NCBI GenBank assembly: GCA_964579415.1
Contig: CAZOGW010000005.1
Location: forward strand, 1 to 50,089
Reading direction: 5' to 3'
DNA length: 50,089 nt
Source: an uncultured Acidimicrobiaceae bacterium
Lineage (GTDB): Bacteria; Actinomycetota; Acidimicrobiia; Spongiisociales; UBA5794
In this document: one piece after another, positions 16,606 through 47,999 of the stretch
How the letters are laid out: every line of letters begins with the position of its first letter
Numbering within the stretch: the stretch's first letter is position 1
Notes under the pieces: generated by a model
Told to the model about the DNA's origin: nothing
Databases searched by the model: none
The model's input: the letters and a program-made list of their open reading frames with translations, nothing else
Position numbers and translations under genes: made by a program

Positions 16606-16626
16606 GTACTGGCTACTGGATACTGT
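16606..16626. repeat. heptanucleotide tandem repeat, locus A (gtactgg ctactgg atactgt)
   Basis: Three heptads. The first 20 nt are identical to the reverse complement of locus B, and 21 of 22 nt match the reverse complement of locus D. Confidence 0.8.
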
Positions 16627-16634
16627 CTCCGCCC

Positions 16635-16661
16635 TGCAACCTATCCATCCTCCCCGGCGTC
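16635..16661 (+). promoter_or_regulatory. candidate ECF-type promoter (TGCAAC-N17-CGTC) upstream of the second sigma gene
   Basis: tGCAACc at 16635..16641 and CGTCC at 16658..16662. This resembles the generic ECF GGAAC-N16/17-CGT pattern. Confidence 0.3.
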
Positions 16662-16673
16662 CCCTCTCGCGAC

Positions 16674-17153
16674 ATGACACAGACGGCAGGGAGACCCATG
16701 GCGAGCCTCGACCGGAGAGGGCTGGAAACCCTCTACCGCACCGAGCTGGCGTACATGGTGCGGCTGGCACATGTCATCACCGGCTCCAACGCCGTCGCCG
16801 AGGAACTGGTGCATGACGCCTTCATCGAGCTGCACAAGCGCTGGAACGGCATCCGCGACCCGCGTGCCTACCTGAAGCGCAGCGTGGTCAACAAGTCCCG
16901 CTCACACCTGCGCCGCCGCGACGTGGAGCGGCGCCACGCCCCCAGCCCGCAGCCGCCGGTACTGCCGCCCGAGATGGACGACACCTGGCACCGTCTCGCC
17001 GCCCTCTCACCGAAGCGTCGCACCGCGGTGGTGCTGCGCTACTACGCCGACCTTCCCATCGACGAGATCGCCACGTTGATGAGCGTCCGCCCCGGCACCG
17101 TGAAATCCCTGCTTCACCGGGGCTTGAAGGATCTGAAGGAGCAGCTCACATGA
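16674..17153 (+). CDS. ECF (sigma-70 family) RNA polymerase sigma factor
   Basis: Sigma2 region (AEELVHDAFIELHKRW...AYLKRSVVN) and sigma4 region (RRTAVVLRYYADLPIDEIATLMSVRPGTVKSLLHRGLKDL). An alternative start is the ATG at 16698, preceded by GGGAGA. Confidence 0.85.
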   Translation: MTQTAGRPMASLDRRGLETLYRTELAYMVRLAHVITGSNAVAEELVHDAFIELHKRWNGIRDPRAYLKRSVVNKSRSHLRRRDVERRHAPSPQPPVLPPEMDDTWHRLAALSPKRRTAVVLRYYADLPIDEIATLMSVRPGTVKSLLHRGLKDLKEQLT

Positions 17154-18283
17154 ACGACGACACCCTGGAGAGGAGCCTCCGCGAGACGCTCACCGCCGTG
17201 GCCGTCACCACCGAGGTGAAGGATCGCTGGAACGAGATCGCCGCAGCCCCGGTGCCGGCTCGCCGCGAGCGCCGGCCTCTGCTCATCGCCACCGCTGCGT
17301 TCGCCGTGGTCCTGGTGACGGTCGGGTCGTTCGCCCTCGTCTCCACTCTCATCGGCGGGGACCGGGACTTCGCCTCACCTCCTCTCGATCCCGCCGAGAC
17401 CACCAGCGTGTCGAAGCTCCGCTACCCCGTGCCGGGGTATATCCCCGCCGGAGCCGACGAGGTGTGGGCGCAGATCCCGGTGCGCGATCCCGCATCGCCG
17501 TCAGTGGTGACCGCTGTGCTGGGCCGGCGCACATCGCTCGACGGCGGGGGGTTCGGCGCGGACATCGAAGAGATAACCGCCGTCCACGTCCGTCGCAGCG
17601 TCCCCGAGGACGCCACCGCGGAGGGCGAGATCGTCGCGGTGGGGGACAGGGAGGTGCGGCTCACCGAAGGTGCCCTCACCGGATCGGTGGGCGTGATGTG
17701 GACCGACGGCGACGTCACCGCCATCGTCGGGGTGTCCGACGGCGATGTCGACCGCGCTCTCGATACCGTCGCCGGCGTGTCGTGGAGCGGAGACGATCCC
17801 ACCGTTCCCGGGGCGGTAGTCGTCGACCCGCCGGAAGGACTCGAACTGATCGCCGAGCCGATCGTGACCAGCGACGTGCCCGGTCCCATGGTGACCATGC
17901 AGTGGGACGACGCCATCCCGCCGGCAACGGTGCCGGGCGCCCCGCCCCCGATGGTCGACGTGCTGCAGATCGACGTCTGGGTGTCGGAGGACAGCCCCGA
18001 AATCCTGCTGGCGCCACATCCCGTCGCCCAGTCCTTCGAGCTGCGCGGCCGCCCCGCCTACCTCGTGTGGAGCCGCGACTACTCCTCAGTCATCTGGGAG
18101 GAAGCTCCCGGTTTCACCGTCACCGTCTCCGGCTGGCTCACCGATACCACCGAACTGATCCGCATCGCCGAGAACGTCGAGTTCACCGACGAGGAGACGT
18201 GGTACGCCATGTTCGACCTCGACGGTGAGCCCGGCGTCCCCCCGACGATGAGCGAGACGACGTCGATGAATGTCGGCGGCTGA
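17150..18283 (+). CDS. single-pass membrane protein, putative anti-sigma factor
   Basis: Its start overlaps the sigma gene stop (ATGA). It has a short cytoplasmic N-terminus, one TM helix (LLIATAAFAVVLVTVGSFALV) and a large extracytoplasmic domain. No zinc-binding anti-sigma motif is visible. Confidence 0.6.
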   Translation: MNDDTLERSLRETLTAVAVTTEVKDRWNEIAAAPVPARRERRPLLIATAAFAVVLVTVGSFALVSTLIGGDRDFASPPLDPAETTSVSKLRYPVPGYIPAGADEVWAQIPVRDPASPSVVTAVLGRRTSLDGGGFGADIEEITAVHVRRSVPEDATAEGEIVAVGDREVRLTEGALTGSVGVMWTDGDVTAIVGVSDGDVDRALDTVAGVSWSGDDPTVPGAVVVDPPEGLELIAEPIVTSDVPGPMVTMQWDDAIPPATVPGAPPPMVDVLQIDVWVSEDSPEILLAPHPVAQSFELRGRPAYLVWSRDYSSVIWEEAPGFTVTVSGWLTDTTELIRIAENVEFTDEETWYAMFDLDGEPGVPPTMSETTSMNVGG

Positions 18284-18299
18284 CCGGAGACGAATAGCT

Positions 18300-18626
18300 C
18301 GATTTCGTCCTCCCCCGCCGCTTCGGCGGCGGGGGAGGTGGATGATCGACTGGCCTGGCGATTTCATCCTCCCCCGCCCGAAGGGGGAGGTGGCAGCCCG
18401 GCAGCTTTGGGCCGGCTGTCGGAGGGGGTCTTCGTCCGAGGTCCGTGTTGAGCTTGCCCCGAGTCGGTGCAGGGTACGCGATGAAGACCCCCCTCCCCCC
18501 TGCCTCCGCAAAGCCTCCGTCAGGGGTACTCCCCCCGCAAAGCCGGGGGGAGATGAAGAAGGCGCACTCGACCCGCCCTTCGCAAAGCCCCGGGCGGGCC
18601 ACTCCCCCCCGGCAGAGCCGGGGGAG
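18300..18626. repeat. array of about 7 C-run/G-run stem-loop repeats (REP-like) in a convergent intergenic gap
   Basis: Individual hairpins:
- 18309..18338: 13-bp stem with a ttcg loop.
- 18368..18390.
- 18421..18433 paired with 18483..18496.
- 18497..18526.
- 18529..18552.
- 18572..18598.
- 18602..18626.
The loop motif (c/t)cgcaaagcc occurs three times (18506, 18535, 18580). Confidence 0.8.
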
Positions 18627-18648
18627 ACGGAGTCCGCTCCACTTCCTC

Positions 18649-18951
18649 TCAGGTCTTGATGATCACTTCGAACTCGAGAAGCTCGGAGCCGGTGCCGACC
18701 GGGCCCTGGGTGTGGTGCTGGGCGTGGCCCTGGCCGAAGGCGTCACTCTGGCGCCATGCCTGGAAAGCCTCGTCGGAGGCCCAGCGGGTGTAGACGTAGT
18801 ACGTGTTGCGCCCATCGGTGGGGCGGAGCAGCTCGAACCCCTCGAACCCGTCGACGCCGTCGATGGCGCCGGCCCTATGGGCGAACCGCTCCTCCAGCAC
18901 CTCGCCCATGCCCTCGGGCACCTCGATGGCGTTGATCCTGACCACACTCAT
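18649..18951 (-). CDS. mhuD: haem-degrading monooxygenase, MhuD/IsdG (ABM) family
   Basis: MSVVRINAIEVPEG...LEERFAHRA...GFEGFELLRP...WASDEAFQAW...SELLEFEV is collinear with the mycobacterial MhuD sequence as I remember it. The ATG at 18951 is preceded by GAAGGAG. Confidence 0.85.
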   Translation of the reverse strand: MSVVRINAIEVPEGMGEVLEERFAHRAGAIDGVDGFEGFELLRPTDGRNTYYVYTRWASDEAFQAWRQSDAFGQGHAQHHTQGPVGTGSELLEFEVIIKT

Positions 18952-19065
18952 AACAAGCTCCTTCACGACCGTGGTCCGACACTAACCGGAGGTGTGCACA
19001 GCCCGGCCATTCACCGTCGAGATTGTTCGGTGACATTTGAAATGCCGTCTCGCGAACAAATTTGC

Positions 19066-19133
19066 CGAAACCGGTTGCACCATCCGCTGTCCCGCACCTA
19101 AGGTTGTAAACGTTATCGAAATCGTTATCGAAC
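19066..19133. promoter_or_regulatory. candidate LacI-family operator boxes
   Basis: - 19066..19079 on the reverse strand reads TGCAACCGGTTTCG, a 13 of 14 match to the generic TGNAANCGNTTNCA.
- 19105..19118 reads TGTAAACGTTATCG, with 2 mismatches.
- CGTTATCGAA is directly repeated at 19111 and 19123. Confidence 0.4.
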
Positions 19134-19178
19134 TCGCCGCAACGATGACGAGACGGTTCTGATGACGGGAGCAGTCGG

Positions 19179-20186
19179 TTGGTCAACGGTCGTATCACCA
19201 TCGGCGATGTCGCCGCCGAGGCGGGAGTCTCGATAGCGACGGTGTCGCGTGTGGTCAACGGACGCTACGGCGTCGCCGAGGGAACCACGGCAAGGGTCCA
19301 GGCCGTCATCGACCAACTCGGCTACGAGTCGAGCCTGGTCGCCCGCAGCCTTCGCAGCCGCCGCACCAACGTCGTTGGCATCGTCGTCTCCGACATCGAG
19401 CCCTTCAGCGCCGAGCTCCTCAAGGGTGCCGCACTGGCGCTGCACGAGACGGGATACGAGCTCATCGTGTACTCCGGTGGCGGCCACGTCGGCGACGATG
19501 TGGGTTGGGAGCGGCGCTACCTGTCCCGGGTGAGCGGCACCCTCACCGACGGCAACATCCTCGTCACACCGACGGTCGTCGACGTCCCCGCCGGGCATCC
19601 CGTCGTCGCCGTAGACCCGCACGCCGGGGCCTCCGGCCTACCCACCGTTGACTCGCACAACCTGCAGGGCGCGGTGACCGCCACCCGCCACCTCGTCGAG
19701 TTGGGTCATCGCCGCATCGGGTTCCTTGCCGGCCGTCCCGACCTGGAGTCGGCGCGGCTCCGCGAGCAGGGCTACCGGCGTGCCCTCGACGAGGCCGGCA
19801 TCGACTTCGACCCCGACCTGGTACTCGTCGGCGGCTACCGGCCCGAGACGGCGGAGGAGCCGGCGCACCGCCTCCTCGACCGGCCCGACCGGCCCAGCGC
19901 GGTCTTCGCCGCCAACGACCTCTCCGCCATCCAGACGATGGAGGTGGCACGTCGCCTCGGCCTGTCGGTTCCCGAGGACCTTTCCCTCGTCGGGTTCGAC
20001 AACATTCCCGAGTCGGCCCTCACCGACCCTCCCCTCACCACGATCGACCAGTCGATCCAGCAGATGGGCTTCGAGGCTGTGCGACTCCTCATCGAGCTCA
20101 TCGCAGATCCCGCACGCGAGCCCGTGCATCTGACCCTGCCCACCGAGTTGGTGGTCCGGCAGTCGAGCCGGCCACCCCGCGACTGA
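19179..20186 (+). CDS. LacI family transcriptional regulator
   Basis: N-terminal HTH ITIGDVAAEAGVSIATVSRVVNG followed by a periplasmic-binding-protein-like body. TTG start preceded by GGGAG. Confidence 0.9.
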   Translation: MVNGRITIGDVAAEAGVSIATVSRVVNGRYGVAEGTTARVQAVIDQLGYESSLVARSLRSRRTNVVGIVVSDIEPFSAELLKGAALALHETGYELIVYSGGGHVGDDVGWERRYLSRVSGTLTDGNILVTPTVVDVPAGHPVVAVDPHAGASGLPTVDSHNLQGAVTATRHLVELGHRRIGFLAGRPDLESARLREQGYRRALDEAGIDFDPDLVLVGGYRPETAEEPAHRLLDRPDRPSAVFAANDLSAIQTMEVARRLGLSVPEDLSLVGFDNIPESALTDPPLTTIDQSIQQMGFEAVRLLIELIADPAREPVHLTLPTELVVRQSSRPPRD

Positions 20187-20234
20187 GAACAGACGGAAGG
20201 AAACGCCATGTACTTGTCAGGAAGGAGCGAGCAC

Positions 20235-21608: not shown

Positions 21609-21632
21609 GCAGGCTGCCCGCGAGAACGAGGG

Positions 21633-21663
21633 GGGGCGGGACGTTGCGGCGACGTCCCGCCCC
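21633..21663 (+). terminator. 12-bp hairpin after the binding-protein gene (intra-operon attenuator or terminator)
   Basis: ggggcgggacgt-tgcggcg-acgtcccgcccc. Confidence 0.5.
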
Positions 21664-21720
21664 GCTCTCTACTTCGCCGGCGGGACACGATCGCGGTGCT
21701 GTTGACCGTGGTGGCAGCGG

Positions 21721-21755
21721 CCGGTATCCAGTAGCCAGTATCCAGTAGCCAGTAC
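21721..21755. repeat. heptanucleotide tandem repeat, locus B (ccggtat ccagtag ccagtat ccagtag ccagtac)
   Basis: Five heptads. The array ends 18 nt before the GTG start of the permease gene. Confidence 0.85.
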
Positions 21756-21773
21756 TCCCGAGAGGTCGTACAC

Positions 21774-32910: not shown

Positions 32911-33047
32911 CACGCTGAGGCTAAACCGGGCCTTCGAGTCGCGTCCGGCTCCCTTCTCGCCACCCACGTCCGGCACCTACGGGCTCCGCCGGGATGCGGG
33001 GCCAGGGGGACGGGCCGTATGCTCGACAGCGGAGAAGGGAGGGCTGT

Positions 33048-35684
33048 GTGATCGGCCGCGACCGGGAGATGGCCGACCTGATCGAGCGGATCGGGAGGCG
33101 GCGCCTGGTGACCGTCATCGGCGCGGGCGGTATCGGGAAGACCACCGTGGCGCGCGCGGTAGCCGAGGCCGTCGCGGACCGCTTCGCCCTGGGGGCACAT
33201 TTCGTCGACCTGACCGCAGTCGATCGAGCGGACGACGTCGGCGGGGCCATCGCCGCCCAACTCGGCTACCCGTCCTTCCGGGCGCTCCTCGATTCGCCGA
33301 CCGACGCTGAGGCGCTGGTCGTGGTCGACAACTGCGAGCACGTCATCGACGCCGCCGCATCGGCCATCGCCGACGTCCTGGCGTCCTGCCCATCGCCGAC
33401 GGTACTGGCGACCAGCCGGAGCCCGCTCGATCTGGTGGGGGAGTCTGTGATGGTGCTCGGTCCGCTGGGCGTACCGGCGAGCAGCAGCGCCGTCGGGACC
33501 GGGACCGAATCGGTGCGGTTGTTCCTCCAGTGCGCCCGGGATTCCGGAGCTGTGCCGGGCGACGACCAACTCCACGACATCGCCGAGCTGTGTCGCCATC
33601 TTGACGGCGTCCCGTTGGCCATCGAACTGGCGGCGGCACAGACCCGCGCGATGACTCCGGCCGGCATCCTGGGCCACCTGCGGTCAGGTGACGATGTCCT
33701 GGCGCGGCCCCGGCTGCGCAGCGCCGGCCGCCACCGCAGCCTGTGGGAGACGATCGAGTGGTCCCGCCTCCTGCTCGAGCCCGAGCCGGCAGCGCTGTTC
33801 GATCGTCTCGGCGTCTTCGCCGGGCCCTTCTCCATCCCCGCGGCGCATGCGATATGTGCCCCGCCGAACACTTCGCCATCGGCGACGAGGCTGGCCGTGA
33901 CCAGTCTGGTGGACAGCTCTCTGCTGGCCGTCGAGCACCGCGAGGCGGAGGCGAGGTACCGGATGCTGACCCCGATCCGGTCCTTCGCACTGGGTCGGCT
34001 CGGCGCCTCCGGGGATCTGCCCGCGGTACAGGATCGGTTCGTCGACCACGTCGTCGATGTCGTGACGACGGTTGTTGACGCGACCCGCCTACGTTGGTCG
34101 ACGCCGGACGTCCAGCGGCTCCTCGCCCTGTACGACAACATGGCGGCAGCGCTGCGCTGGTGCATCTATCACGACGACACCGTCGACCGTGCCGGGATCA
34201 TCTACGGGGCTCTGTGGGCGTGGGTCCCCCATGGGCACACCGACGACATTGCGTTGCTGGGGCGGGAGCTGGTCGCCCGGTGGCCGGATCTGCCGCCGCC
34301 GTGGGGACCGGACGTCGCCGCCACGCGTGCGGCCGCCGAATACCTGCTCGGTCGTCCCCGGGTGGCCGCCACTCTCGCCGAAGGGGCGTTGCCCGAGGCG
34401 GACCGATCGCGGTTCGCACCGGCCACGCTTCGCCGCATCCTCGGTGAGGTGGCGCGGGTGACCGGTGATGCGAGCGGGGCCGAGGCCCTGTTCGCAGAGG
34501 CGGCTCACCAGGCGGACCGGTTGGGGCTGCGGTCTCTGGCCATGGAGGCCGAGGTGCTCCGGGCCCAGGTGCTCGCCGACACCGGGCGGATCGAAGAGGC
34601 ACGGGCCATCACGCGAGCCGTGTACCACGAGGCGGTCTCGACCGGTTCGGACCTGAGCGCCTTATGGGCATGGTCGTCGGAGGGTCACACCCTCTTGCGT
34701 CGCGACCCGCAGGAGGCCCTGCCCGTCATCGAGGAAGCGCTGGTGGCCGCCCGGCGTGCCGACCACGCCGTGATGATCGCCGCCAACCTCTACTCCAAGA
34801 CGGTGGCCCTGGCGACTCTCGGTCACACCACCGAGGCGGCCGCGGCCGCGTTGGAGCTGATCGATGCGCTGCTCTACCGCGGCGTGCTCTCCTCGGGCCG
34901 GACGGTCCTCGATGTCGTCGCTCTGGTCCTGCGCCGCGCCGGCGACCCCCGGTGGGCACCGATCCACGCCACGGCCCGCACCCTCCCGGTGACCGTCCTC
35001 ATGGCGGGGGTCGGGTACGAACTCTTCACCCTCCCCGATAGTGACGGGCAGCCCATGGAACGCCGGCTGGCCATCTCCCTGGCGCGCCGCGCACTCACCG
35101 AGATACTCGCCGATCCCCCGACCGGTGGCGGAGAACCTTCAGCCGGCGCCGATGCCGTGTTCTCCCGCAGCGGAGATGTCTGGGACGTTCGCTTCGCCGG
35201 GACGGCCGTGCACCTCAAGGCGTCCAAGGGGATGGACGACCTGGCCCGCCTCCTGGCCAGCCCCGGGGTCGAGGTCCACTGCCTCGAGCTGTCGGGCGCG
35301 GGCCTGGTGTCGTCGTCGACGGGCGAGACGATCGACAGCGCCGCCAGGCGAAGTTACGAGGCGCGGGTGCGCGAGCTACAAGGCGACGTCGAAGAGGCAG
35401 AGGCCGACAACGACACCGGGCGGGCGGAGCAAGCTCGCTCCGAGCTCGACGCGCTGGTGGACCATCTCGCCGGAGCCCTCGGTCTGGGCGGTAGGGCCCG
35501 GCAGAGTGGAGGCTCGGCGGAACGTGCCCGCTCCGCGGTGACTCACCGTTTGCGCTCGACCATCCGGCGCATCGCCGATCAGCATCCCGAGCTGGGCCGT
35601 CACCTGGCTGCGTCCGTGGTCACAGGGTCCTACTGCTGCTACCGGCCCGAGAGGCCGGTGGAGTGGCGGGTCACCGCCCCGTGA
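33048..35684 (+). CDS. STAND NTPase (NB-ARC-like) with TPR-like helical repeats and a non-LuxR C-terminal domain
   Basis: GTG at 33048 preceded by GGAGAAGGGAGGG. The motifs are VIGRDREMADL...VTVIGAGGIGKTTVA (Walker A), LVVVDNCEH (Walker B) and LDGVPLAIELAA (GxP-type). A long helical region follows. The C-terminal roughly 190 aa read FSRSGDVWDVRFAGTAVHLKASKGMDDLARLL...GLGGRARQSGGSAERARSAVTHRLRSTIRRI. Confidence 0.8.
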   Translation: MIGRDREMADLIERIGRRRLVTVIGAGGIGKTTVARAVAEAVADRFALGAHFVDLTAVDRADDVGGAIAAQLGYPSFRALLDSPTDAEALVVVDNCEHVIDAAASAIADVLASCPSPTVLATSRSPLDLVGESVMVLGPLGVPASSSAVGTGTESVRLFLQCARDSGAVPGDDQLHDIAELCRHLDGVPLAIELAAAQTRAMTPAGILGHLRSGDDVLARPRLRSAGRHRSLWETIEWSRLLLEPEPAALFDRLGVFAGPFSIPAAHAICAPPNTSPSATRLAVTSLVDSSLLAVEHREAEARYRMLTPIRSFALGRLGASGDLPAVQDRFVDHVVDVVTTVVDATRLRWSTPDVQRLLALYDNMAAALRWCIYHDDTVDRAGIIYGALWAWVPHGHTDDIALLGRELVARWPDLPPPWGPDVAATRAAAEYLLGRPRVAATLAEGALPEADRSRFAPATLRRILGEVARVTGDASGAEALFAEAAHQADRLGLRSLAMEAEVLRAQVLADTGRIEEARAITRAVYHEAVSTGSDLSALWAWSSEGHTLLRRDPQEALPVIEEALVAARRADHAVMIAANLYSKTVALATLGHTTEAAAAALELIDALLYRGVLSSGRTVLDVVALVLRRAGDPRWAPIHATARTLPVTVLMAGVGYELFTLPDSDGQPMERRLAISLARRALTEILADPPTGGGEPSAGADAVFSRSGDVWDVRFAGTAVHLKASKGMDDLARLLASPGVEVHCLELSGAGLVSSSTGETIDSAARRSYEARVRELQGDVEEAEADNDTGRAEQARSELDALVDHLAGALGLGGRARQSGGSAERARSAVTHRLRSTIRRIADQHPELGRHLAASVVTGSYCCYRPERPVEWRVTAP

Positions 35685-36962: not shown

Positions 36963-36992
36963 TCACCTACGACCCTACAGACTGATCATGGA

Positions 36993-37022
36993 GCCGGCCG
37001 GACGCGATGACGTCCGGCCGGC
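36993..37022 (+). terminator. 12-bp hairpin after the metalloprotease gene
   Basis: gccggccggacg-cgatga-cgtccggccggc. Confidence 0.6.
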
Positions 37023-37128
37023 CCGGTCGCGTCCTGGCCCCGCCAACCTGGGTGGGGCGAGGCGGTCCCGTGTCGTTTCCTCCCGGAGGCGGCGTCCCGC
37101 GGCGGCGCCGGTACAATGGCGAGTCCCC

Positions 37129-37202
37129 GGGGACGTAGCTCAGGCTGGCAGAGCACCTGGTTTGCAACCAGGGGGTCGTGGGTTCAAATCCCATCGTCTC
37201 CA
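37129..37202 (+). tRNA. tRNA-Ala (anticodon UGC)
   Basis: Folded by hand as follows:
- Acceptor stem ggggacg/cgtctcc with a G3:U70 pair.
- D stem gctc/gagc.
- Anticodon stem cctgg/ccagg with loop ttTGCaa.
- T arm gtggg-ttcaaat-cccat.
- Discriminator A.
The CCA end is not encoded. A TACAAT box at 37112..37117 lies 11 nt upstream. Confidence 0.9.
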
Positions 37203-37257
37203 CCCGAGGCCGGGCGATCAGGGGGGCCGGCCGCACAGCAGAGAGGCTGGCCAACCC

Positions 37258-38418
37258 ATGCGGGAAGCAGTCATCGTCGACGCCATCCGGACGCCAGGAG
37301 GCAAGCGCAACGGCAAGCTGAAGAATTGGCACGCCGTCGACCTGGCCGCCGAAGTGCTCACCGAGATCGCCAAGCGCAACGACCTCGATCCCGTCCTCGT
37401 CGACGACGTCATCTTCGGTTGCGTGACCCAGACCGGCGAGCAGGGCGTCAACGTAGCCCGCAACGCCGTCCTTGCCGCCGGGTACCCCGAGACGGTTCCC
37501 GGGGTCACCCTCGACCGGCAGTGCGGCTCCAGCCAGCAGGCCATCCACTTTGCCGCCCAGGGGATCATCGCCGGCGCCTACGACGTTGCCATCGCCGGCG
37601 GCGTCGAGATGATGAGCCGTGTCCCCATGGGGATCACCATGCAGCAAGGCCCCGGTACTGCCTTCGGCCCCCGCATGCTGGAGCGCTACGACATCGTCCC
37701 TCAGGGCATCTCGGCGGAGATCATCGCCGAGACCTGGGGCGTAACCCGGGAGGAGGCCGACCGGCTCGCCGTCGACTCGCACGCCCGGGCATTGCGGGCG
37801 ACCAACGAGGGCCGCTTCGACAACGAGATCATCCCGATAGAGGTGCGTGGCGATGACGGCTCGGTGGAGATCGTGCGCCGTGATGAGGGCATCCGGCCCG
37901 GGACGTCGCTGGAGACGCTGGCCCAGCTCAACCCAGCTTTCAAGGAGGGCGGTATCGTCACCGCCGGGAACTCGTCGCAGATCGCCGACGGCGCCTCGGC
38001 CGTCCTGGTGACGAGCCGTGACAAGGCGGAGGACCTGGGCCTGCGCCCCCGCGCCCGCCTCGTCGGGTTCTCCGTGGTCGGCGTGGACCCGGTCGGCATG
38101 CTGACCGGCCCGGCACCCGCCACTGCCAAGGCGCTGGTCAACGCCGGCCTCAGCCTCGACGACATAGACCGGTTCGAGGTCAACGAGGCGTTCGCCACGG
38201 TGGTGGCGGTCTGGCTACGGGAGACAGGTGCCGACTGGGAGAAGACCAACGTCAACGGCGGGGCGATGGCGCTGGGGCATCCGCTGGGCGCCTCGGGAGC
38301 GAAGCTGATGGCAACCCTGCTCAACGAATTGGAGCGCACCGGCGGTCGCTACGGGCTGCTGACGATGTGCGAGGGTGCGGGCATGGCCAACGCCACCGTC
38401 ATCGAGCGCCTCGGCTGA
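37258..38418 (+). CDS. acetyl-CoA C-acyltransferase (thiolase)
   Basis: MREAVIVDAIRTPGGKRNG, the active-site Cys context LDRQCGSSQQA, and the C-terminal motifs NVNGGAMALGHPLGASG and CEGAGMANA. Confidence 0.9.
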   Translation: MREAVIVDAIRTPGGKRNGKLKNWHAVDLAAEVLTEIAKRNDLDPVLVDDVIFGCVTQTGEQGVNVARNAVLAAGYPETVPGVTLDRQCGSSQQAIHFAAQGIIAGAYDVAIAGGVEMMSRVPMGITMQQGPGTAFGPRMLERYDIVPQGISAEIIAETWGVTREEADRLAVDSHARALRATNEGRFDNEIIPIEVRGDDGSVEIVRRDEGIRPGTSLETLAQLNPAFKEGGIVTAGNSSQIADGASAVLVTSRDKAEDLGLRPRARLVGFSVVGVDPVGMLTGPAPATAKALVNAGLSLDDIDRFEVNEAFATVVAVWLRETGADWEKTNVNGGAMALGHPLGASGAKLMATLLNELERTGGRYGLLTMCEGAGMANATVIERLG

Positions 38419-38421: not shown

Positions 38422-38652
38422 ATGGACGTCGTGATCGCGGTGGCGATCGGAGTCGGCATCATGGCGGTGGCACTGTGGACCGTGCGGCTCCTGGCCACGC
38501 CCGGCCCCGAAGAACCCGACCCCGACGAGGTCCACGAGACCTCCATCGACTACAAATGCATCGTCTGCGGCCTCCGCCTGACGGTCACCGCCGCCCAGGA
38601 AGGCGAGACCGTCGCGCCAAGACACTGTCGTGAGGACATGGAGATTGTGTGA
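38422..38652 (+). CDS. small membrane-anchored protein with a CxxC...HC motif (hypothetical)
   Basis: Starts 4 nt after the thiolase stop. One N-terminal TM helix, then YKCIVCGLRL...APRHCRE. Coding-like third positions. Confidence 0.4.
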   Translation: MDVVIAVAIGVGIMAVALWTVRLLATPGPEEPDPDEVHETSIDYKCIVCGLRLTVTAAQEGETVAPRHCREDMEIV

Positions 38653-38692: not shown

Positions 38693-38744
38693 GTACTTGG
38701 TACTTGGTACTTGGTACTTCGCGGATACCAAGTACCAAGTACCC
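38693..38744. repeat. heptanucleotide repeat, locus C: (gtacttg)x3.5 facing (taccaag)x2.5, forming an 18-bp perfect hairpin
   Basis: 38699..38716 ggtacttggtacttggta pairs with 38726..38743 taccaagtaccaagtacc, with a 9-nt loop. It lies between convergent genes. Confidence 0.85.
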
Positions 38745-38778
38745 CTTGCTCGCACCCGGCTCGCGGTTGTGCGATCCC

Positions 38779-39030
38779 CTACCGATAGTTCAGGGTCATC
38801 GCGAAGCCGCCGGCGATGGCGGCGAGGCCGGCGAAGAGGTAGTTGTTCGACGTGCCGCCCGGCAACAGGTTCATGTAGTTGACGAGGATGATGAGCACGC
38901 CGAGGCCCATCAGCCCGAACATCGTCACCACATACCAGGTGGGCGACGGGCCCTTGTCCTTCGCCGGGTTGACGTGCTTCGGCGGCGTGGGGCGGTTGTG
39001 GGCTTTCTTGCGTGGTTTCGAAACGGGCAT
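38779..39030 (-). CDS. crgA: cell division protein CrgA
   Basis: MPVSKPRKK...PSPTWYVVTMFGLMGLGVLIILVNYMNLLPGG.SNNYLFAGLAAIAGGFAMTLNYR. The protein is 83 aa with two TM helices. Confidence 0.85.
   Translation of the reverse strand: MPVSKPRKKAHNRPTPPKHVNPAKDKGPSPTWYVVTMFGLMGLGVLIILVNYMNLLPGGTSNNYLFAGLAAIAGGFAMTLNYR

Positions 39031-40049: not shown

Positions 40050-40053
<4 letters not shown>
39901..40053 (+). CDS. possible small membrane protein (50 aa)
   Basis: The GTG overlaps the sortase stop (GTGA), and the ORF end overlaps the next start. One TM helix (IVETLVLVAVLLVALHFFYTWL). Evidence is weak. Confidence 0.35.
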
Positions 40054-40628
<575 letters not shown>

Positions 40629-40979
40629 CCACCCACATCGGGCGGGGCCGCCCCGGAGTCGGGCGTCGCGTGTGACCCTGGGGGCGGTGCATCCCCGGAG
40701 TTGCCCGGGAGGGACCGCACACAGGGCAATGCCCCGACGAGCACCGGTCCACCACGGTGAAGGCGATGCCCGTCTGAGCCAGTGCCGCCTCGGCGGCGGC
40801 GAAGGCCGCGTCCCCTGCTGTTCTGTGTGCCGGTAGTGCCATGGGGACAAGGTATCAACGGGGTATGACAAGAAAAGGGCACTCCGTACTCAGTATTCGA
40901 GTATTCGTCAGTCGGTGACCATGACGGGTTCCCGTTCGCCGGGGTCGGGGGCAATCCAGGGTTGGGGGATACCGGATGG

Positions 40980-42919: not shown

Positions 42920-43060
42920 CCGGCGCAGACTAGGTGTGATGGCACCGGTCTCCGTCGGGCGCTCGGACAGCGGGTCGACCGGTGGCGGGGCCAGCCACAA
43001 GGGGATGTCTGCTTGACCGGCGACGGTCCTACGCTGCGGGCCGACCGACCCTGGAGTGTG

Positions 43061-43387
43061 ATGGAGCTTCACCGCTACACCGATGCGCCGAGCTTCCCGT
43101 TCGGACACCTCACCGTGCGCGACATGACGCCGGAGGGCTTCGACCGGTTGGCCCTCGCCGAGATCGAGGTCCCCATCGGGGCCGACAACCCGCCGTACGC
43201 GGCCACCGGCAACGACAAGATCTACGTCGGGATCACCGGCGATATCGAGTTCGTCGTCGGCGAGGAGACGGCGCGGCTACGGCGGGGCGACGTGCTCGTC
43301 ATCCGTGCCGGTGACCGCTTCTCGTACCACAACGGCGGCTACGAGACCGGCCGCCTACTCGTGATCCAGGTCCCGGCCACCGCGTAA
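43061..43387 (+). CDS. cupin-domain protein
   Basis: 108 aa. Beta-rich, with G.D.IYVG.TGDIEF...RRGDVLVI.AG. GGAG lies upstream of the ATG. Confidence 0.65.
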   Translation: MELHRYTDAPSFPFGHLTVRDMTPEGFDRLALAEIEVPIGADNPPYAATGNDKIYVGITGDIEFVVGEETARLRRGDVLVIRAGDRFSYHNGGYETGRLLVIQVPATA

Positions 43388-43405
43388 GGCGTCGCTCGAC
43401 TCCTG

Positions 43406-44710
43406 CTACGCCCCCACGGTGCAGCCGAGGACGTCGATGAATCCCTGGGTGTCGCTGACGTATTCCCACACCGTGATCCAAGAGCCCTCGTAGTAGATCC
43501 CGCTGGTGATCAGCTCCATCCGTCCGTCGTGGTTGACGTCGGCAAAGCCGGTGATGCCGGGCCGCACCAGCAGGCTCTCGGTACCACCGCCCGAGTCGGG
43601 GATCACCGAGATCTCGAGCAGGAGTAACTCCTCCTCGCCCTGGATCTCCTTGAGCACGTAGATCACCCCGTAGGACCCCGGGGCTGCGTCGATGAGCGAT
43701 CTCCCCTCGTTGTGGAAGGCCGCCACCGCGGTGTCGGTGACACCGTCGCCGTCGATGTCGGTCTGAATCACCTGGGTGATCTCCACCACAGGGTCGGCGA
43801 TGTCGGAGGCGAGCAGTTCCCGGGTCCGCTCGACGAGGTTGGCGTCGTTGATGTTGCCGTTGCTGACGGCACGGGGAAACAGGTTGCCCGACGTCTGCAC
43901 CGCGACACCGCCGGTGTCGCCGGGCGGCTGCGGGGTGAGGGGCACACGCCAGTGGCTCGACGGCGCCGACTCCTGCACCGGAGCACCGCCGGTGACCGTC
44001 GACGGTGAGGACCCGATCCCGATGCTCTGGTAGCTCTCGCCGCCGGACACGGGTAAGGAGGAGGCGTTGGTGGCGCGCTGCCAGCCGCCCTCCCACCATC
44101 CGGCGACGCACAGGTTTCCTGCCACCGTCATGGTGTCGGAGCCGGCCGGCTGCGTGGTGGTCGTCTCCGCCGTGGTGGTGGTGGTGGGAGCCAGCGTGGT
44201 GGTGGTCGTGGTCGCCTCCGTGGTCGAGGTGGTGGCCTCGATGGTGGTGGATGTCACCTCGGTGGTCGTCGTCGGCGCTGCGGTGGTCGTGGTGTCTCCC
44301 GGGATGGTGGTGGTGGTGGTGGACACCGGCACGTCGTCGCCGTCACGGGTGAGCAGGTAGATCAAGAGGCCGATGAGGGCGACCGTCAGGAGCACGATGA
44401 TGGTGATCAGGGTGTTGCGGGTGCGCTGGGAGTCGCCGTCGTCCCCGTCGCCGGGACCGCCCGTCGGTGGCGGGTAATCGGGGGGCAGCCCGCCGGGCGG
44501 GATGGCCGGCATGAGCTGGGTGGCATCCTCGTCCATGGCCCAGGGAGGGGCTTCAGGCGGTGGGGCGGGGACCTGTTCGGGGACCGGGGGAGGCGTGGTC
44601 GGCGTGCCGTCTCCGGCCTTCGCTGTCGCCGCGGTGGGCTCATCGATGGGTGGCGGTTCGACCGGCCCCTCAGAGTTGGGGGGCCCGTCCGGTGGGTTCG
44701 TCATCAACAC
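43406..44710 (-). CDS. single-pass membrane protein: Pro-rich N-terminus, TM helix, Thr-rich linker, FG-GAP/VCBS-like C-terminal domain
   Basis: TM helix LITIIVLLTVALIGLLIYLL. A roughly 70-aa linker dominated by Thr. DIDGDGVTD and DVNHDGRMEL resemble Ca-binding loops. Confidence 0.65.
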   Translation of the reverse strand: MLMTNPPDGPPNSEGPVEPPPIDEPTAATAKAGDGTPTTPPPVPEQVPAPPPEAPPWAMDEDATQLMPAIPPGGLPPDYPPPTGGPGDGDDGDSQRTRNTLITIIVLLTVALIGLLIYLLTRDGDDVPVSTTTTTIPGDTTTTAAPTTTTEVTSTTIEATTSTTEATTTTTTLAPTTTTTAETTTTQPAGSDTMTVAGNLCVAGWWEGGWQRATNASSLPVSGGESYQSIGIGSSPSTVTGGAPVQESAPSSHWRVPLTPQPPGDTGGVAVQTSGNLFPRAVSNGNINDANLVERTRELLASDIADPVVEITQVIQTDIDGDGVTDTAVAAFHNEGRSLIDAAPGSYGVIYVLKEIQGEEELLLLEISVIPDSGGGTESLLVRPGITGFADVNHDGRMELITSGIYYEGSWITVWEYVSDTQGFIDVLGCTVGA

Positions 44711-44788
44711 GCCTTTCGGGCGACGCGCGGGTGCCGACAGGATACGTCGTCACCGCCTCGACTCGCGGCAACGTCCGCTACGCGGGGC

Positions 44789-45460
44789 TCAGGCGGCGGG
44801 AAGGACGTGCCGGTAGATGGTGGCGAAGTGGATCGCCGAGGCGGTGACCACCAGCACGTGGAACGCTTCGTGGTACGAGAAGACGCGAGGCCACAACCGG
44901 GGCCGGTTGGTGACCAGCATCACCATGCCCACGGTGTAGAGGATCCCGCCCGTGGCGAGGAGAGCCACCGCGATGCCGCCGGCAGAGTGGGCGACCGGCC
45001 ACATGATGATCACCGCCAGCCACCCCAGCGTTGTCGACAGGGCGACGCTGAACGTGTTCTTGTCCCGGGGGAACCATGCCTGCTGAGCGACGCCGATGGC
45101 GGTCAGCAACCACACCGTGACCAGGACGGCGACACGGAGCCCGCCGTCGAGGGCGGCGACCGCAATCGGCGTGTAAGTGGAGGCGACCAACACGTAGATC
45201 ATGGAGTGGTCGGCGCGCTGCATGCGCTTCTTCCACAGGTTGCTCCAGGGCACGGAGTGATAGAGGGCGCTGGTGGAGTAGAGGGCCACCATGCCGAGGC
45301 CGAAGACGGCGGCGGCGATGCGCACCGGCCATGTCGGGGAGTGGGCCATGAGGTAGGCAGTCCCGATGACGGCCAGCACCGCCGCGGTGCCGTGGAGGAA
45401 TCCCCGCACCGGGTTCTGCATGCGTCCCAGCGTTGCCCGTTCGATCGGATCGAGTGCCAT
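44789..45460 (-). CDS. hemolysin III / PAQR family membrane protein
   Basis: Seven TM helices with HGTAAVL..., LYSTSALYHS, DHSMIY and FHVLV motifs. Confidence 0.85.
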   Translation of the reverse strand: MALDPIERATLGRMQNPVRGFLHGTAAVLAVIGTAYLMAHSPTWPVRIAAAVFGLGMVALYSTSALYHSVPWSNLWKKRMQRADHSMIYVLVASTYTPIAVAALDGGLRVAVLVTVWLLTAIGVAQQAWFPRDKNTFSVALSTTLGWLAVIIMWPVAHSAGGIAVALLATGGILYTVGMVMLVTNRPRLWPRVFSYHEAFHVLVVTASAIHFATIYRHVLPAA

Positions 45461-45689
45461 GCACTGAGGCTACCGGTGGGTGCGCGCTAACCGGCGAGGA
45501 ATCGCGCCGAATCGGCGCCACTTGGTAAACAACGGTAATCCGACATCAGGTCGGCTCGGGGAATGTGATCTGCCGCAGGCGAGGCAATGAGAGGAAGGTC
45601 CAGGCGGGAGTTTGGTCGAAGCAGGCGAAGACTTCTGACGGTTTGTGGCCAAATCTCGGCGAACTGCCCGCCGTCAGCGGAGTGGCTCG

Positions 45690-45729
45690 GGGGGCGTCGC
45701 CAGTCGGACTGCCGACGTGCGACGCCCCC
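45690..45729 (-). terminator. long GC hairpin about 110 nt downstream of the 129-aa gene
   Basis: Outer stem gggggcgtcgc ... gcgacgccccc enclosing an inner stem gtcgg-actg-ccgac. Confidence 0.45.
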
Positions 45730-45840
45730 TCACGCTCCGAACCGCCGGGGTCTCCTCATGCGGTGCGCCCCGAGGCCGCATTCGCGTATGCCCCTCTAGA
45801 CCGCGGCTCTGTGGTGGGAGTCGGTGCCTTGGATCGACCG

Positions 45841-46230
45841 TCAGGCGGAGCGGGCGATGCCCGCGTCGCGCAGGACGCCGGCAGGGACCCCGGCAGCGCG
45901 CCAGGCGGCATATGTGATGCCCTTACGCTGCGAGTACCCCTTCACCGCGCCGACGAAGCCCTCCTCGAGAGCGGCCAGGTCGTTGGCCGCGGAGACGGTC
46001 TTGAGTGCCTCTTCGGCGTCGAGACGCTGCTGGAGCAGGTCCACCTTCTTCAGCGGGTCGCTCTCGGTGCCGAGCCTGGCGTCCAACTTCTCGATGCGGG
46101 AGTTGACAGACTCGGTGGTGACGGGACGGCCCGGCCTACGATTGGCAAGTGCCTCGAGATAGGCCTTGATCGCTCGTGACTCCTTGCGACCCTGTGCCAG
46201 TGCGTTCTTGTGCTCCTGGGACATTGCCAT
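45841..46230 (-). CDS. conserved hypothetical protein (129 aa, helical, Lys/Glu-rich)
   Basis: GGAGG lies 10 nt upstream of the ATG. Coding-like composition. No recognisable motif. Confidence 0.65.
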   Translation of the reverse strand: MAMSQEHKNALAQGRKESRAIKAYLEALANRRPGRPVTTESVNSRIEKLDARLGTESDPLKKVDLLQQRLDAEEALKTVSAANDLAALEEGFVGAVKGYSQRKGITYAAWRAAGVPAGVLRDAGIARSA

Positions 46231-46322
46231 CTACTTAAACCTCCATGGGACGGGGACATACACATCTATCTTGCCACCACTGAAGCGTAATGCGAGATTC
46301 TGTATCAGAATGACTGACGTCG

Positions 46323-47102
46323 ATGGAACCTAAGCAACAGATCAAACGGTCGCTCTACAGCCTCTACGAACGGCGCATTCTTCGCTATCTCGACCGCTCG
46401 GCGCTTCCCCGGCACATCGGAGTGATCCACGACGGTCACCGGCGGTACGCCCGCAGCGAAAGGCTGCCCGACTATGCCTCCGGTTACAGGGTGGGAATGG
46501 ACAAGTTCATCGAGTTCCTCGGCTGGGCGGAGGAGTTGAGCATCCCTGCGATTACCTGCTGGTTGCTGTCCAAGGAGAACCTCAACCGCCCCGCAGCAGA
46601 ATTGGAGCCGTACTACGACGTTCTCATCGAGATGTTCGACCGGATACCCGACGCCGTGGGCGAGCCGGTCAAGGTCCGCTTCATCGGGAGCCTCACCGAG
46701 TTGCCCCCGCGACTGGTGGCGGCCGCCGAACGCCTCCAGGTGGCGTGCAGCACGGGGGATCGCCGGGTGACCATTGCGCTGGCCTACGGTGGTCGCCAGG
46801 AGATCGTGGACGCCGCCCGGGATCTGGTGGCGAAGCTGGCCGCCGACGGCGTGCCGGCCCTGGAGATCGCGGACGCCATCGATGCCGACGCCCTGGCCCG
46901 CCACCTCTACGCGGCGGACCTGCCTGACCCTGACCTGGTCATCCGAACCTCGGGTGAGGCGAGGCTCTCCGGATTCCTGCTGTGGCAGGCGGCGTACGCC
47001 GAATACTCCTTCGTCGACGTCTATTGGCCCGCCTTTCGCCGTGTCGACTTCCTCCGTGCCCTTCGGGATTACACCCAACGCGAGCGCCGCTTCGGCCGCT
47101 AG
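46323..47102 (+). CDS. cis-prenyltransferase (undecaprenyl / Z-isoprenyl diphosphate synthase family)
   Basis: PRHIGVIHDGHRRYA, WLLSKENLNRP, and IRTSGEARLSGFLLWQAAYAEY. It lies next to a hemolysin III gene, as for the short-chain Z-prenyl synthase in mycobacteria. Confidence 0.9.
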   Translation: MEPKQQIKRSLYSLYERRILRYLDRSALPRHIGVIHDGHRRYARSERLPDYASGYRVGMDKFIEFLGWAEELSIPAITCWLLSKENLNRPAAELEPYYDVLIEMFDRIPDAVGEPVKVRFIGSLTELPPRLVAAAERLQVACSTGDRRVTIALAYGGRQEIVDAARDLVAKLAADGVPALEIADAIDADALARHLYAADLPDPDLVIRTSGEARLSGFLLWQAAYAEYSFVDVYWPAFRRVDFLRALRDYTQRERRFGR

Positions 47103-47109
47103 CGGGGGG

Positions 47110-47130
47110 ACAGTATCCAGTAGCCAGTAG
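47110..47130. repeat. heptanucleotide tandem repeat, locus D (acagtat ccagtag ccagtag)
   Basis: Begins 8 nt after the prenyltransferase stop. Its reverse complement matches locus A at 21 of 22 positions. Confidence 0.8.
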
Positions 47131-47216
47131 CAGGACCAGCGCTCTTCAGGCTCTCGGTCCGATATCTGGCGCTGGTCACAGCAGAGGGCCGTGTCTCGGG
47201 TCGGGCCTGGGTCTTC

Positions 47217-47251
47217 GTACTGGATACGGGATACTGGATACGGGATACCCC
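47217..47251. repeat. heptanucleotide tandem repeat, locus E (gtactgg atacggg atactgg atacggg atacccc)
   Basis: Five heptads in the opposite orientation to locus D. A 17 of 20 inverted match to D is separated by 86 nt. Confidence 0.8.
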
Positions 47252-47270
47252 TGATCACCGAGGCGTCTTG

Positions 47271-47960
47271 TCATCGTGATCGTTCGTCCCTTGCAAGATG
47301 CTCCTGGTCGTTGAAGGAGCGCAGCGAGAAGACGTGCCCATCGGCGAGGGGGACGGTGCGCACCCGGGCGATGGAGGCATGGCCCAGCATGAAGCGCTCC
47401 CACTCCCACGGTGTCGGCTCTACGCCGAGAAGGTAGGTCAGCGCCACCGAATTGGTACCGCCGTGGGCGACGATGACGATGCGCCCCGCCCGGCCCTCGT
47501 CGCGCCACATGTGGGGGCGGCCCTGCCGGTCGGGAGTTACGCCGCGCTCGGCGAGGACGTGGCCCAGCAGGTCGGTGACGCGGACGTGGAAGTCACGGAA
47601 GGTCTCGCCTCCCGTCATGCCGTCCCACCACTGCTCCGGCGGTCGGCGTTGCGCCTCGATGAAGATGCGCTGGACGTGCTCCTCGGGCTGCTCACTCCAG
47701 TCGGGAAGACGCATCTCCACCAGGTCGTCGAGCGTGACCGGCGCCACTCCGGTTGCCCTCACCAGAGGCAGTGACGTCTCCTGGGAACGCACCGCAGGTG
47801 ACACCAGCAACTCCTCGATGGGGCGGGCGTCGGAACGGCTCAGGCGTCCCGCCACCCGCCCGGCCTGGACCTGCCCCAGCGGGGTCAGGCCCGGATCGTG
47901 CCGCGCCCGCCCGTCCACCGTCCACCGCGGTTGTCCATGCCGGATCAGCACGATCTCCAT
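47271..47960 (-). CDS. histidine phosphatase (phosphoglycerate-mutase-like) family protein
   Basis: MEIVLIRHGQPRW is the RHG catalytic motif, and VIVAHGGT is the second His motif. The ATG is at 47960. Confidence 0.85.
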   Translation of the reverse strand: MEIVLIRHGQPRWTVDGRARHDPGLTPLGQVQAGRVAGRLSRSDARPIEELLVSPAVRSQETSLPLVRATGVAPVTLDDLVEMRLPDWSEQPEEHVQRIFIEAQRRPPEQWWDGMTGGETFRDFHVRVTDLLGHVLAERGVTPDRQGRPHMWRDEGRAGRIVIVAHGGTNSVALTYLLGVEPTPWEWERFMLGHASIARVRTVPLADGHVFSLRSFNDQEHLARDERSR

Positions 47961-47964
47961 GCAG

Positions 47965-47999
47965 CGAGTATCCAGGATCCAGTAGCCGGTAGCCAATAC
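47965..47999. repeat. heptanucleotide tandem repeat, locus F (cgagtat ccaggat ccagtag ccggtag ccaatac)
   Basis: Five heptads that begin 4 nt from the phosphatase start codon, in the divergent gap toward pyrE. Confidence 0.8.

Follow-up and report, generated by a model that had tools for sequence, protein, structure and literature searches.

Dispersed heptanucleotide tandem repeats in the intergenic DNA of an Acidimicrobiia-like bacterium: a known kind of repeat family in a new lineage

Short tandem arrays of seven-nucleotide units recur between the genes of a high-G+C bacterium, and it must be asked whether they are real, to which class of repeats they belong, and what brings them about. They are situated in a stretch of 50,089 nt from contig CAZOGW010000005.1 (assembly GCA_964579415.1, an uncultured Acidimicrobiaceae bacterium), which as a whole is called the window. 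The window has about 69% G+C and is about 88% coding and 12% non-coding. It contains five arrays of the unit TACYGGN and one of the unit GTACTTG. These arrays are real, specific for a period of 7 nt and strictly non-coding. The class is secure: they form a dispersed heptanucleotide simple-sequence-repeat family, new for the Acidimicrobiia and of a kind already known. Three or more head-to-tail 7-nt copies beyond chance, one unit at separate loci, and a non-coding position are all found in the window. With moderate confidence we favour as explanation that the arrays are slippage-prone spacers with hairpin or leader effects which depend on context.

The genes of the window identify the source as an Acidimicrobiia-like actinobacterium, because CrgA and a sortase are encoded and the undecaprenyl-diphosphate synthase (UPPS) is up to 75% identical to the UPPS of metagenome-assembled genomes (MAGs) labelled Acidimicrobiia. 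ECF sigma factors and a LacI-type sugar ABC/GH3 cluster are encoded as well. Genes in the window were defined by Pfam hits together with codon-usage calls. Arrays were called by Tandem Repeats Finder, dinucleotide shuffles of the window served as the chance baseline, and one detector was run across periods 4 to 15 as a test of period specificity.

The departure from chance is large. With at most one mismatch TACYGGNTACYGG is matched 15 times, compared with 0.39 expected (the shuffle maximum is 2). Fourteen of the 15 matches fall in loci A, B, D, E and F (Table 1); the remaining one, at 2125, is a chance intragenic match. At period 7 the detector reports 4 arrays, versus 0.0 in the shuffles, and at every other period it reports one at most. 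Isolated TACTGG hexamers outside the arrays are as frequent as expected (16 versus 15.1). Thus, the signal is in the tandem arrangement, not in the word. The arrays had been noticed before in an analysis of the bare sequence (the original prediction), and its description holds up with respect to the loci themselves, their location outside of Pfam-supported and codon-usage genes, which applies to all six, the proximity of A, C, D and E to stop codons and of B and F to start codons, the occurrence of both orientations, and the classification as an STRR-like family. The claimed 14-nt super-period is present in arrays B and E, with a match of 95-100% according to Tandem Repeats Finder. A shared core was also claimed, essentially rightly, yet with counts slightly swapped: array A and the reverse complement of array D have the 21 nt of TACTGGCTACTGGATACTGTC in common, and the reverse complement of array B shares 19 nt of this core.

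Table 1. Heptad arrays of the window, and loci in other genomes with inverted heptad pairs (positions are those of the window; L numbers denote loci collected from other genomes)
Feature	Position	Strand	Tandem Repeats Finder call	Units
Array A	16607..16626	+	16607-16625	TACTGG C TACTGG A TACTGT, 2.9 units
Array B	21721..21754	-	21720-21754	5 units; + strand CCGGTAT CCAGTAG CCAGTAT CCAGTAG CCAGTA
Array C, left arm	38693..38719	+	38693-38719	(GTACTTG)x3.9
Array C, right arm	38726..38743	+	38726-38743	(TACCAAG)x2.6, inverted complement of left arm, 6 nt apart
Array D	47110..47131	-	47111-47131	minus strand GCTACTGG CTACTGG ATACTGT; left arm of D/E pair
Array E	47218..47251	+	47218-47248	(TACTGGA TACGGGA)x2.2, perfect 14-nt super-period; right arm of D/E pair
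Array F	47964..47998	-		minus strand TATTGGC TACCGGC TACTGGA TCCTGGA TACTC, then GCTGC, then ATG
Inverted heptad pairs, loci				L010, L012, L015, L028, L037, L041, L043, L044, L050, L055; L319, L329, L333, L334, L339, L347, L349, L351

The source is a metagenome-type assembly and short tandem repeats are prone to mis-assembly. One may therefore suspect chance matches or assembly artefacts. The excess of TACYGGNTACYGG matches over the shuffles and the restriction of the enrichment to period 7 contradict this, as does the length of the arrays, which at 20-35 nt are easily accommodated inside one read. Further, arrays A, D, E and F are reproduced base for base in two independent Logan contigs from run SRR16798009, L136 and L355, which match the window at 100% identity over 3480 nt and 1674 nt. 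The original prediction had itself named an assembly artefact as a danger, and for the four arrays which recur in independent contigs this danger is removed. The suspicion is effectively refuted, and what probability remains to it is negligible.

The arrays come in two architectures: A, B and F are solo arrays, whereas C and D/E are inverted pairs. Array A follows a DUF308 gene, the stop of which (16565) is 41 nt away, and precedes an ECF sigma-factor gene by about 72 nt (ATG at 16699); it is in sense orientation to both. It is identical in contig L355, whose gene call also sets the sigma-factor start at 16699. Its region has no excess of secondary structure (z +0.15). Array B lies within the sugar ABC/GH3 cluster, in the spacer between the end of a solute-binding-protein gene (21608) and the GTG of the first permease gene (21774). 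It stops 19 nt short of this GTG, just 5' of a GAGAGG Shine-Dalgarno sequence (SD), and is antisense to the flanking genes. Its super-period stems from a strict C/A alternation of the units. The region is less structured than shuffles (z +1.5; 191 of 200 shuffles fold at least as well). Array F, in sense orientation, fills the proximal third of a 126-nt divergent spacer ahead of a histidine-phosphatase gene. The last full 7-nt unit is 3 nt upstream of the ATG at 47960, or 5 nt when counted from the TACTC core. This ATG lacks an SD; as a start it is backed by a 229-aa collection entry (P0001) and by homologues of 227-228 aa.

Array C was originally taken for a plain CCAAGTA variant. Actually, its two arms are inverted with respect to each other and form a hairpin with a perfect stem of 18-19 bp (-40.9 kcal/mol on the plus and -43.1 on the minus strand; z about -6.2 on either). 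It is placed between convergent genes, on the plus strand a 76-aa open reading frame (ORF) ending at 38652, or a thiolase gene ending at 38418, and on the minus strand crgA ending at 38779. Arrays D and E are also an inverted pair, with a spacer of 86 nt; a long-range stem between them is part of the minimum-free-energy structure on either strand (z -2.8 and -3.1). D starts 8 nt past the UPPS stop (47102); on the other side, 20 nt separate the end of E from the stop (47271) of the histidine-phosphatase gene, which is on the minus strand. D, E and F are identical in L136. Both inverted pairs, and the abutment of array F on an SD-less start, were overlooked in the original prediction. A consensus promoter and terminator scan of positions 46900-48200, i.e., around D, E and F, yielded no terminator-like site and no promoter.

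Two other palindromes of the window are of the ordinary G+C-rich type. One, GGGGCGGGACG-ttgc-ggCGACGTCCCGCCCC at 21641-21664, follows the binding-protein gene, and array B is downstream of this hairpin; the other, a doubled palindrome GGGGCGCCCC at 15900-15928, follows a gene ending at 15860. Thus, the genome uses conventional G+C-rich hairpins, too. A stretch at 40886-40915 had been proposed as a degenerate relative of the family. Its membership is not confirmed, and we dropped it: two copies of the 8-nt AGTATTCG constitute a period of 8, not 7. The repeat is flanked by GTACTCA, and the genes which converge on its spacer encode a glutamine amidotransferase and an EamA transporter. Possibly, a heptad array has decayed here.

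Is such a family peculiar to this genome? The five TACYGGN loci were counted in 50 kb of a 71-kb contig. A sample unselected for repeats was obtained by collecting 80 loci via the UPPS protein, the gene of which is beside array D. The 26 Acidimicrobiia-like loci (371 kb) contain 21 period-7 arrays, 18 of them intergenic. The other 54 loci, from Lentzea, Streptomyces, Mycobacterium, Alphaproteobacteria, Rokubacteria and archaea (915 kb), contain 6 arrays, one of them intergenic. In the Acidimicrobiia-like loci arrays of period 6 and 9 are confined to coding DNA, and period 8 is rare. The units there vary by genome and comprise TCGGACT, CAGATGC, TTCGTAG, TGAGCTT, CACCATT, CCACTGG and others. Intergenic heptad arrays are therefore typical of Acidimicrobiia-like genomes and also occur in many other phyla, with units which differ between genomes. 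The novelty implied by the original prediction does not survive this sampling, as such arrays are routine here.

An exact 19-mer from array A is found at 55 loci of many phyla in a collection of species-representative genomes. By our own estimate, an arbitrary 19-mer should have about 4 matches when both strands of about 596 Gb are searched. A looser search with 3.7 copies of TACTGGN recovers at least 120 species from many phyla, among them Streptomyces acidicola, Clostridium, Nostoc and many Bacteroidota, Acidobacteriota, Chloroflexota and Desulfobacterota. Considering the 55 cross-phylum matches, we examined whether TACTGG is a special conserved motif or binding site. The controls ruled this out. 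A scrambled heptad 19-mer of matched composition, GATGTCCGATGTCAGATGT, is present at 42 loci, with similar phyla and with solo and hairpin architectures alike. In viral contigs the real unit has 30 matches compared with 16 and 7 for two scrambles, and the other arrays caught in the same loci have no common CTG/CAG core outside the TACTGG-selected set. Thus, heptad arrays of arbitrary unit are widespread and TACTGGN is not special, which is a second reason why the arrays as such are no novelty. In four IMG/VR contigs (L263, L264, L277, L287) two same-strand TACTGGN arrays are exactly 77 nt apart, start to start. This spacing suggests that they may be part of a larger conserved two-array element in some phages.

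In cyanobacteria dispersed heptanucleotide repeats have been on record since 1990; reports from Xanthomonas, Geobacter and Beggiatoa followed. To our knowledge no function, binding partner or spreading mechanism was ever established. The STRR units of heterocystous cyanobacteria are CCCCAGT, TTGGTCA and CAACAGT. Like the window family they are dispersed, non-coding tandem heptamers, and several unit families exist per genome; unlike it they have other units, belong to another phylum and often form much longer arrays, whereas the window genome has 69% G+C. With the unit TACTGG[C/A] and an actinobacterial host the window family is not STRR sensu stricto.

A description of TACTGG-type units was not found in the literature searched. 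The original prediction further stated that no equivalent is described in actinobacteria. This cannot be upheld: according to the part of the survey by Mrazek, Guo and Shah (2007) which is related in PMC4679880, three Actinobacteria are among the ten genomes richest in repeats of 5-11 nt, and in most genomes long simple-sequence repeats most often have heptanucleotide units. These repeats, as portrayed in PMC4679880 and PMC4692102, resemble the window arrays in that 7-nt units are over-represented, mostly intergenic and sporadic, that Actinobacteria are included, and that slippage is proposed. The survey differs in being statistical; as summarised there, it deals with neither TACTGGN nor Acidimicrobiia, inverted-pair hairpins or gene-relative positions.

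Families with a single unit are likewise on record in Xanthomonas and Nostoc (PMC4692102), Geobacter (PMC2700814) and a Beggiatoaceae genome (PMC4679880), and here too the implied novelty fails. In the latter genome 169 TAACTGA arrays were reported, shared with Cyanobacteria and Bacteroidetes (MacGregor, 2015; PMC4679880). They are mostly in forward orientation, a few nt upstream of starts, in place of a Shine-Dalgarno sequence; S1, Csp and CsrA were proposed as candidate binders and the function is unknown (PMC4679880). The likeness to the window is in the 2-6 tandem heptamers at many intergenic loci and in the start-proximal, SD-replacing placement of array F. The unit is different and shares at best 4-5 of 7 positions with [C/A]TACTGG. 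Further, the start-codon rule is followed by one of six window loci: array B is antisense and upstream of an SD, A is about 72 nt upstream of its start, and C, D and E come after stops. Inverted pairs account for 1 of 170 in the TAACTGA family, versus 2 of 4-5 sites in the window. Xanthomonas has about 180 intergenic GGGAATC arrays per genome, mostly of about 4 units, with inverted pairs noted (Rehm, 2015; PMC4692102). The lengths of the GGGAATC and GGGGA(T/C)T arrays of Xanthomonas and Nostoc vary between related species (PMC4692102); these units are G-rich and capable of forming G-quadruplexes, which TACTGGN is not. In Geobacter metallireducens GGACCGG x4 at 49 loci and MTYCTGA x5 at 15 loci are annotated as putative global regulatory elements (PMC2700814). 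As in the window, arrays of 4-5 heptads of the same unit are spread in one genome, yet the units differ and some elements are intragenic. In a preprint on Nostoc, starts or -10 regions have heptamer arrays at a distance within 30-100 nt; the effects on reporters are modest, and no binding partner was identified (10.1101/2022.06.06.494920).

How do such arrays come about? In the account which we favour they would grow and shrink by slipped-strand mispairing in steps of 7 or 14 nt, and such steps would be the reason for the 14-nt super-periods of B and E. As 7 is not a multiple of 3, arrays would survive only outside of ORFs. They would accumulate where insertions are tolerated, mainly downstream of genes. 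Inverted pairs such as C and D/E may then serve as 3'-end hairpins in termination or mRNA protection, and start-proximal arrays may act as an unstructured SD-less leader or as a core-promoter region of variable length. Slippage-prone DNA is suggested by the super-periods and by the drift of units along arrays. Such drift is observed along single long arrays at loci retrieved with the control unit (L314, L353, L313), e.g., from GTGTTAG via GTGTCAG and ATGTCGG to ATGTCCG, and it looks like the outcome of mutation and of slippage spreading new variants. At these loci different heptad arrays may abut each other. In other lineages orthologous arrays differ in unit number: 5 units (L001/L055) versus 7 (L022), and 2 (L011) versus 3 (L051) units in a left arm.

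Relatives of the window genome illustrate the lability. The nearest homologues of the array-flanked histidine phosphatase have 64-69% protein identity, and the closest of them, L137, has a gene neighbourhood which in part is syntenic with that of the window. In L137 and L140 the orthologous spacers are devoid of arrays, and both 20-kb loci have no heptad array at all. Thus, the arrays are evolutionarily labile at this level of identity. Exact-protein look-ups for UPPS and the binding protein were without a match.

The placement across genomes bears on all explanations. These statistics are based on an iterated codon-usage gene caller, which was checked against the Pfam-supported window genes and still misses a few genes; a filter on G+C at third codon positions (GC3), a mononucleotide model and a first codon model were dropped since they mis-called shadow ORFs. 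Outside called genes are 173 of 206 TACTGG-type arrays (84%). About half of the remainder are at called 5' ends, where a mis-assigned start is probable. When all heptad arrays are counted, 56 are in convergent spacers (28.1 kb) versus 29 in divergent ones (38.0 kb), and 181 are in co-directional spacers. In the latter the strand bias is weak: TACTGG is 52 times sense and 35 times antisense, GATGTC 14 times each. For about 20% of arrays an inverted partner lies no more than 150 nt away. The centre of many inverted pairs is asymmetric: AGA is found on one side, and the second arm is preceded by a T-run. A first, query-biased cross-genome set had 27 of 72 arrays abutting start codons in sense, with a gap peak of 5-6 nt. 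The generalization that arrays abut starts was given up: a larger set is indistinguishable from a random-position control (17%), and with proper gene calls the strand bias is weak.

Several results are at odds with slippage as the full account. Five of the six loci within 50 kb share one unit, and A and D even an identical 21-mer. Slippage at each locus by itself should have multiplied 7-mers which are unrelated to one another, and this leaves the shared unit unexplained. Thus, some family-level copying, homogenisation or selection must also operate. Slippage was not observed for this organism; a metagenome scan with the flanks of array B and a variable gap gave no match. The hairpins of C and D/E lack a T-run 3' of the stem, i.e., they are not canonical intrinsic terminators. 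They may still terminate transcription without a U-tract. The order of arms is fixed for each unit family, CCAGTA...TACTGG 12:0 (mostly from one lineage) and GATGTC...GACATC 6:1, and the D/E pair conforms to the former. The TACTGG pairs are not phylogenetically independent, and this weakens the 12:0 count. Most pertinent is another high-G+C lineage, in which the unit sequences of arrays at orthologous sites are conserved to 97-100%, compared with an identity of 82-86% in the genes on either side. Of the three pairs compared (L037/L053, L042/L047 and L001/L055), the first two have kept the unit number, too. Arrays conserved beyond their flanks point to constraint or active homogenisation, not to neutrality. 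Because one-unit dominance, cross-species conservation and fixed arm order are not explained by slippage, explanations by a reading factor or by copying stay alive.

The lineage with the conserved arrays merits a comment. Its MAGs (JAYQOO01, CAZVLS01, CAWHWW01, JAIEMQ01 and JAKFYH01, with loci such as L001, L037, L053, L055, L042 and L047) are labelled Acidimicrobiia, Acidobacterium sp., 'uncultured cyanobacterium' and Cyanobacteriota, and yet their orthologues are 81-86% identical in nucleotide sequence. The ribosomal protein S4 of the lineage is nearest to that of Thermus, not to actinobacterial, cyanobacterial or chloroplast S4. It follows that several public taxonomic labels must be wrong. 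Probably the lineage belongs to the Acidobacteriota; tblastn among the loci was uninformative for its placement. The site of L042/L047 is the rpsK-rpsD spacer inside the ribosomal alpha operon. At L042, L047, L037/L053 and L001/L055 five-unit TACTGG arrays after a T-run take up the whole spacer and stop 3-6 nt short of the start. At many loci the architecture is (TAGCCAG)n-CCAGAA-loop-TTTTTCTGG-(CTACTGG)n-ATACTG, then 3-9 nt and the start codon.

Could a protein read the arrays? They would then be cis-sites for a sequence-specific factor, one heptad per subunit, with a specificity which differs by lineage and with selection for cognate arrays. The factor might be a cold-shock-domain protein bound to RNA or single-stranded DNA, as such proteins have about 7 base-binding subsites, or a ribbon-helix-helix protein bound to duplex DNA. 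The omega repressor of plasmid pSM19035 is a ribbon-helix-helix protein which sits on contiguous 7-bp heptads, direct and inverted, at the promoters it controls. The window arrays have contiguous heptads in both orientations, and most are after stops, not at promoters. The dominance of one unit in the window, and of one or a few elsewhere (e.g., L081), agrees with a reader, as do the orthologous arrays conserved despite 14-18% flank divergence, the fixed polarity of inverted pairs, and the subset in sense at starts (array F and the 27 of the first cross-genome set). CspB of B. subtilis is reported to bind heptamer repeats, one protein per heptamer, with a weak specificity (PMC4679880). Yet a universal unit or core does not exist, and each lineage would need a specificity of its own. 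The orientation bias is weak overall, convergent spacers are favoured over the promoter-bearing divergent ones, and relatives have no arrays at orthologous sites. Among the window genes scanned neither a ribbon-helix-helix nor a cold-shock-domain gene was present. A reader thus has a modest chance of being the right answer.

Copying by an enzyme encoded elsewhere in the genome would be an alternative source of uniformity. The arrays would be tiny non-autonomous mobile or dispersed elements, similar to REP/REPINs or MITEs, and slippage would only later adjust copy numbers. REP and BIME elements of enterobacteria are short extragenic repeats at gene 3' ends or inside operons, with hairpins which stabilise the upstream mRNA; REP units are individually palindromic and tied to RAYT transposases. 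The malE-malF case has a parallel in array B, which lies between a binding-protein and a permease gene. The identical 19-21-mers of A, B and D, at loci 5-30 kb apart, are what copying would produce, and the same holds for the defined inverted-pair architecture around TTTTTCTGG at many Acidobacteriota-like loci, the preference for convergent and 3' spacers, as with REP elements and MITEs, and the empty orthologous sites of relatives. Against this, the arrays have no terminal structure, and at loci A-F there is no target-site duplication and no flank homology past the arrays. A and D have merely 20-22 nt. The solo arrays are not palindromic, in contrast to REP, and only C and D/E fold. The window has no transposase-like gene, and a RAYT (Y1 transposase) gene is not among the window genes scanned. 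Finally, a transposition mechanism is not known for such units. We consider a mobile origin distinctly unlikely.

As a third alternative, start-proximal arrays such as F would be core promoters of leaderless mRNAs, the number of units tuning or switching expression. This is very doubtful. F spans about -40 to -5 of its SD-less start and contains TTGGCT, 18 nt, GATACT, 6 nt and ATG. TTGGCT could thus be a -35 and GATACT a -10 element, a layout to which we assign the same very low probability. GATACT does have the key A2 and T6 of a -10 hexamer, and its distance would suit a transcript which begins with the ATG. Within arrays of the Acidobacteriota-like lineage the A-variant unit (GATACT) is usually last or second-last, 3-9 nt before the start. 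A precedent exists in the 7-bp repeats of the hmw1A and hmw2A promoters of Haemophilus influenzae: their copy number changes by slippage and grades expression (PMC8262952, PMC2424069), and control of expression by the hmw1A repeats is reported in PMC8262952. Like some window arrays, these tandem heptanucleotides are situated in a promoter or 5' region, yet they comprise one or two contingency loci in a host-adapted pathogen and not a genome-wide family. The consensus scan finds no promoter at F, where 7 of 12 positions match. The idea that the A-variant marks a -10 position at the 3' end of arrays was rejected, since in an N-unbiased set of 138 arrays it is not 3'-enriched. In addition, the arrays are depleted in divergent, promoter-bearing spacers, and promoters in B, D and E would face adjacent genes in antisense direction.

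Slippage-prone spacers thus remain our preferred explanation. A farther-reaching proposal has a small chance of being correct: heptad arrays would be a functional cis-element system across phyla, with one or a few units maintained in each lineage by a heptad-reading factor or an array-copying mechanism. If true, this would account for the dominance of one unit, the conservation at 14-18% flank divergence, the fixed arm order and the concentration at gene 3' ends. The TACTGGN family of the window would then be the Acidimicrobiia instance of an uncharacterised, REP-like 3'-end and leader system. In any event, the window adds a high-G+C actinobacterial case with two hairpin pairs at convergent gene ends, one array at an SD-less start and one in an ABC-transporter operon. 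Any explanation is subject to three constraints. The unit is arbitrary across bacteria and uniform within a genome; convergent spacers are favoured over divergent ones; and between species some arrays have changed far less than the DNA around them. Should a reader protein or a copying enzyme exist, its discovery would account for a feature of intergenic DNA which is widespread among bacteria. Should neither exist, the arrays are strain-typing markers and 7-nt slippage is a real mutational bias.

Some further features of the window deserve mention. It has coding tandem repeats with periods which are multiples of 3 (27-30 nt; GTG/GTGGTG-type of 3, 6, 21 and 24), at 8164-8261 inside the gene of a 1920-aa protein and at 44170-44322 inside an FG-GAP-like gene (43406-44710), in contrast to the strictly non-coding period-7 arrays. 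The 1920-aa protein (2731-8493, minus strand) carries a winged-helix Trans_reg_C domain and a SARP-type BTAD domain, along with WD40 propellers, a kinase-like segment and an NTPase domain of the nSTAND1 family (E 1.7e-108). Another gene for a STAND-type NTPase is at 32994-35684. No link was found between these BTAD and STAND-type genes and the repeats. SARP sites are heptameric direct repeats at intervals of about 11 nt, or one helical turn, upstream of -10 elements, unlike the contiguous, period-7 units of the window.

Rfam 15 at the gathering score has no match to the arrays. Its sole match in the window is a tRNA-Ala (TGC) at 37129-37204 on the plus strand, directly upstream of the thiolase gene. 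The longest ORF at this position, 36988-38418, crosses the tRNA. Thus, the true thiolase start must be downstream of the tRNA.

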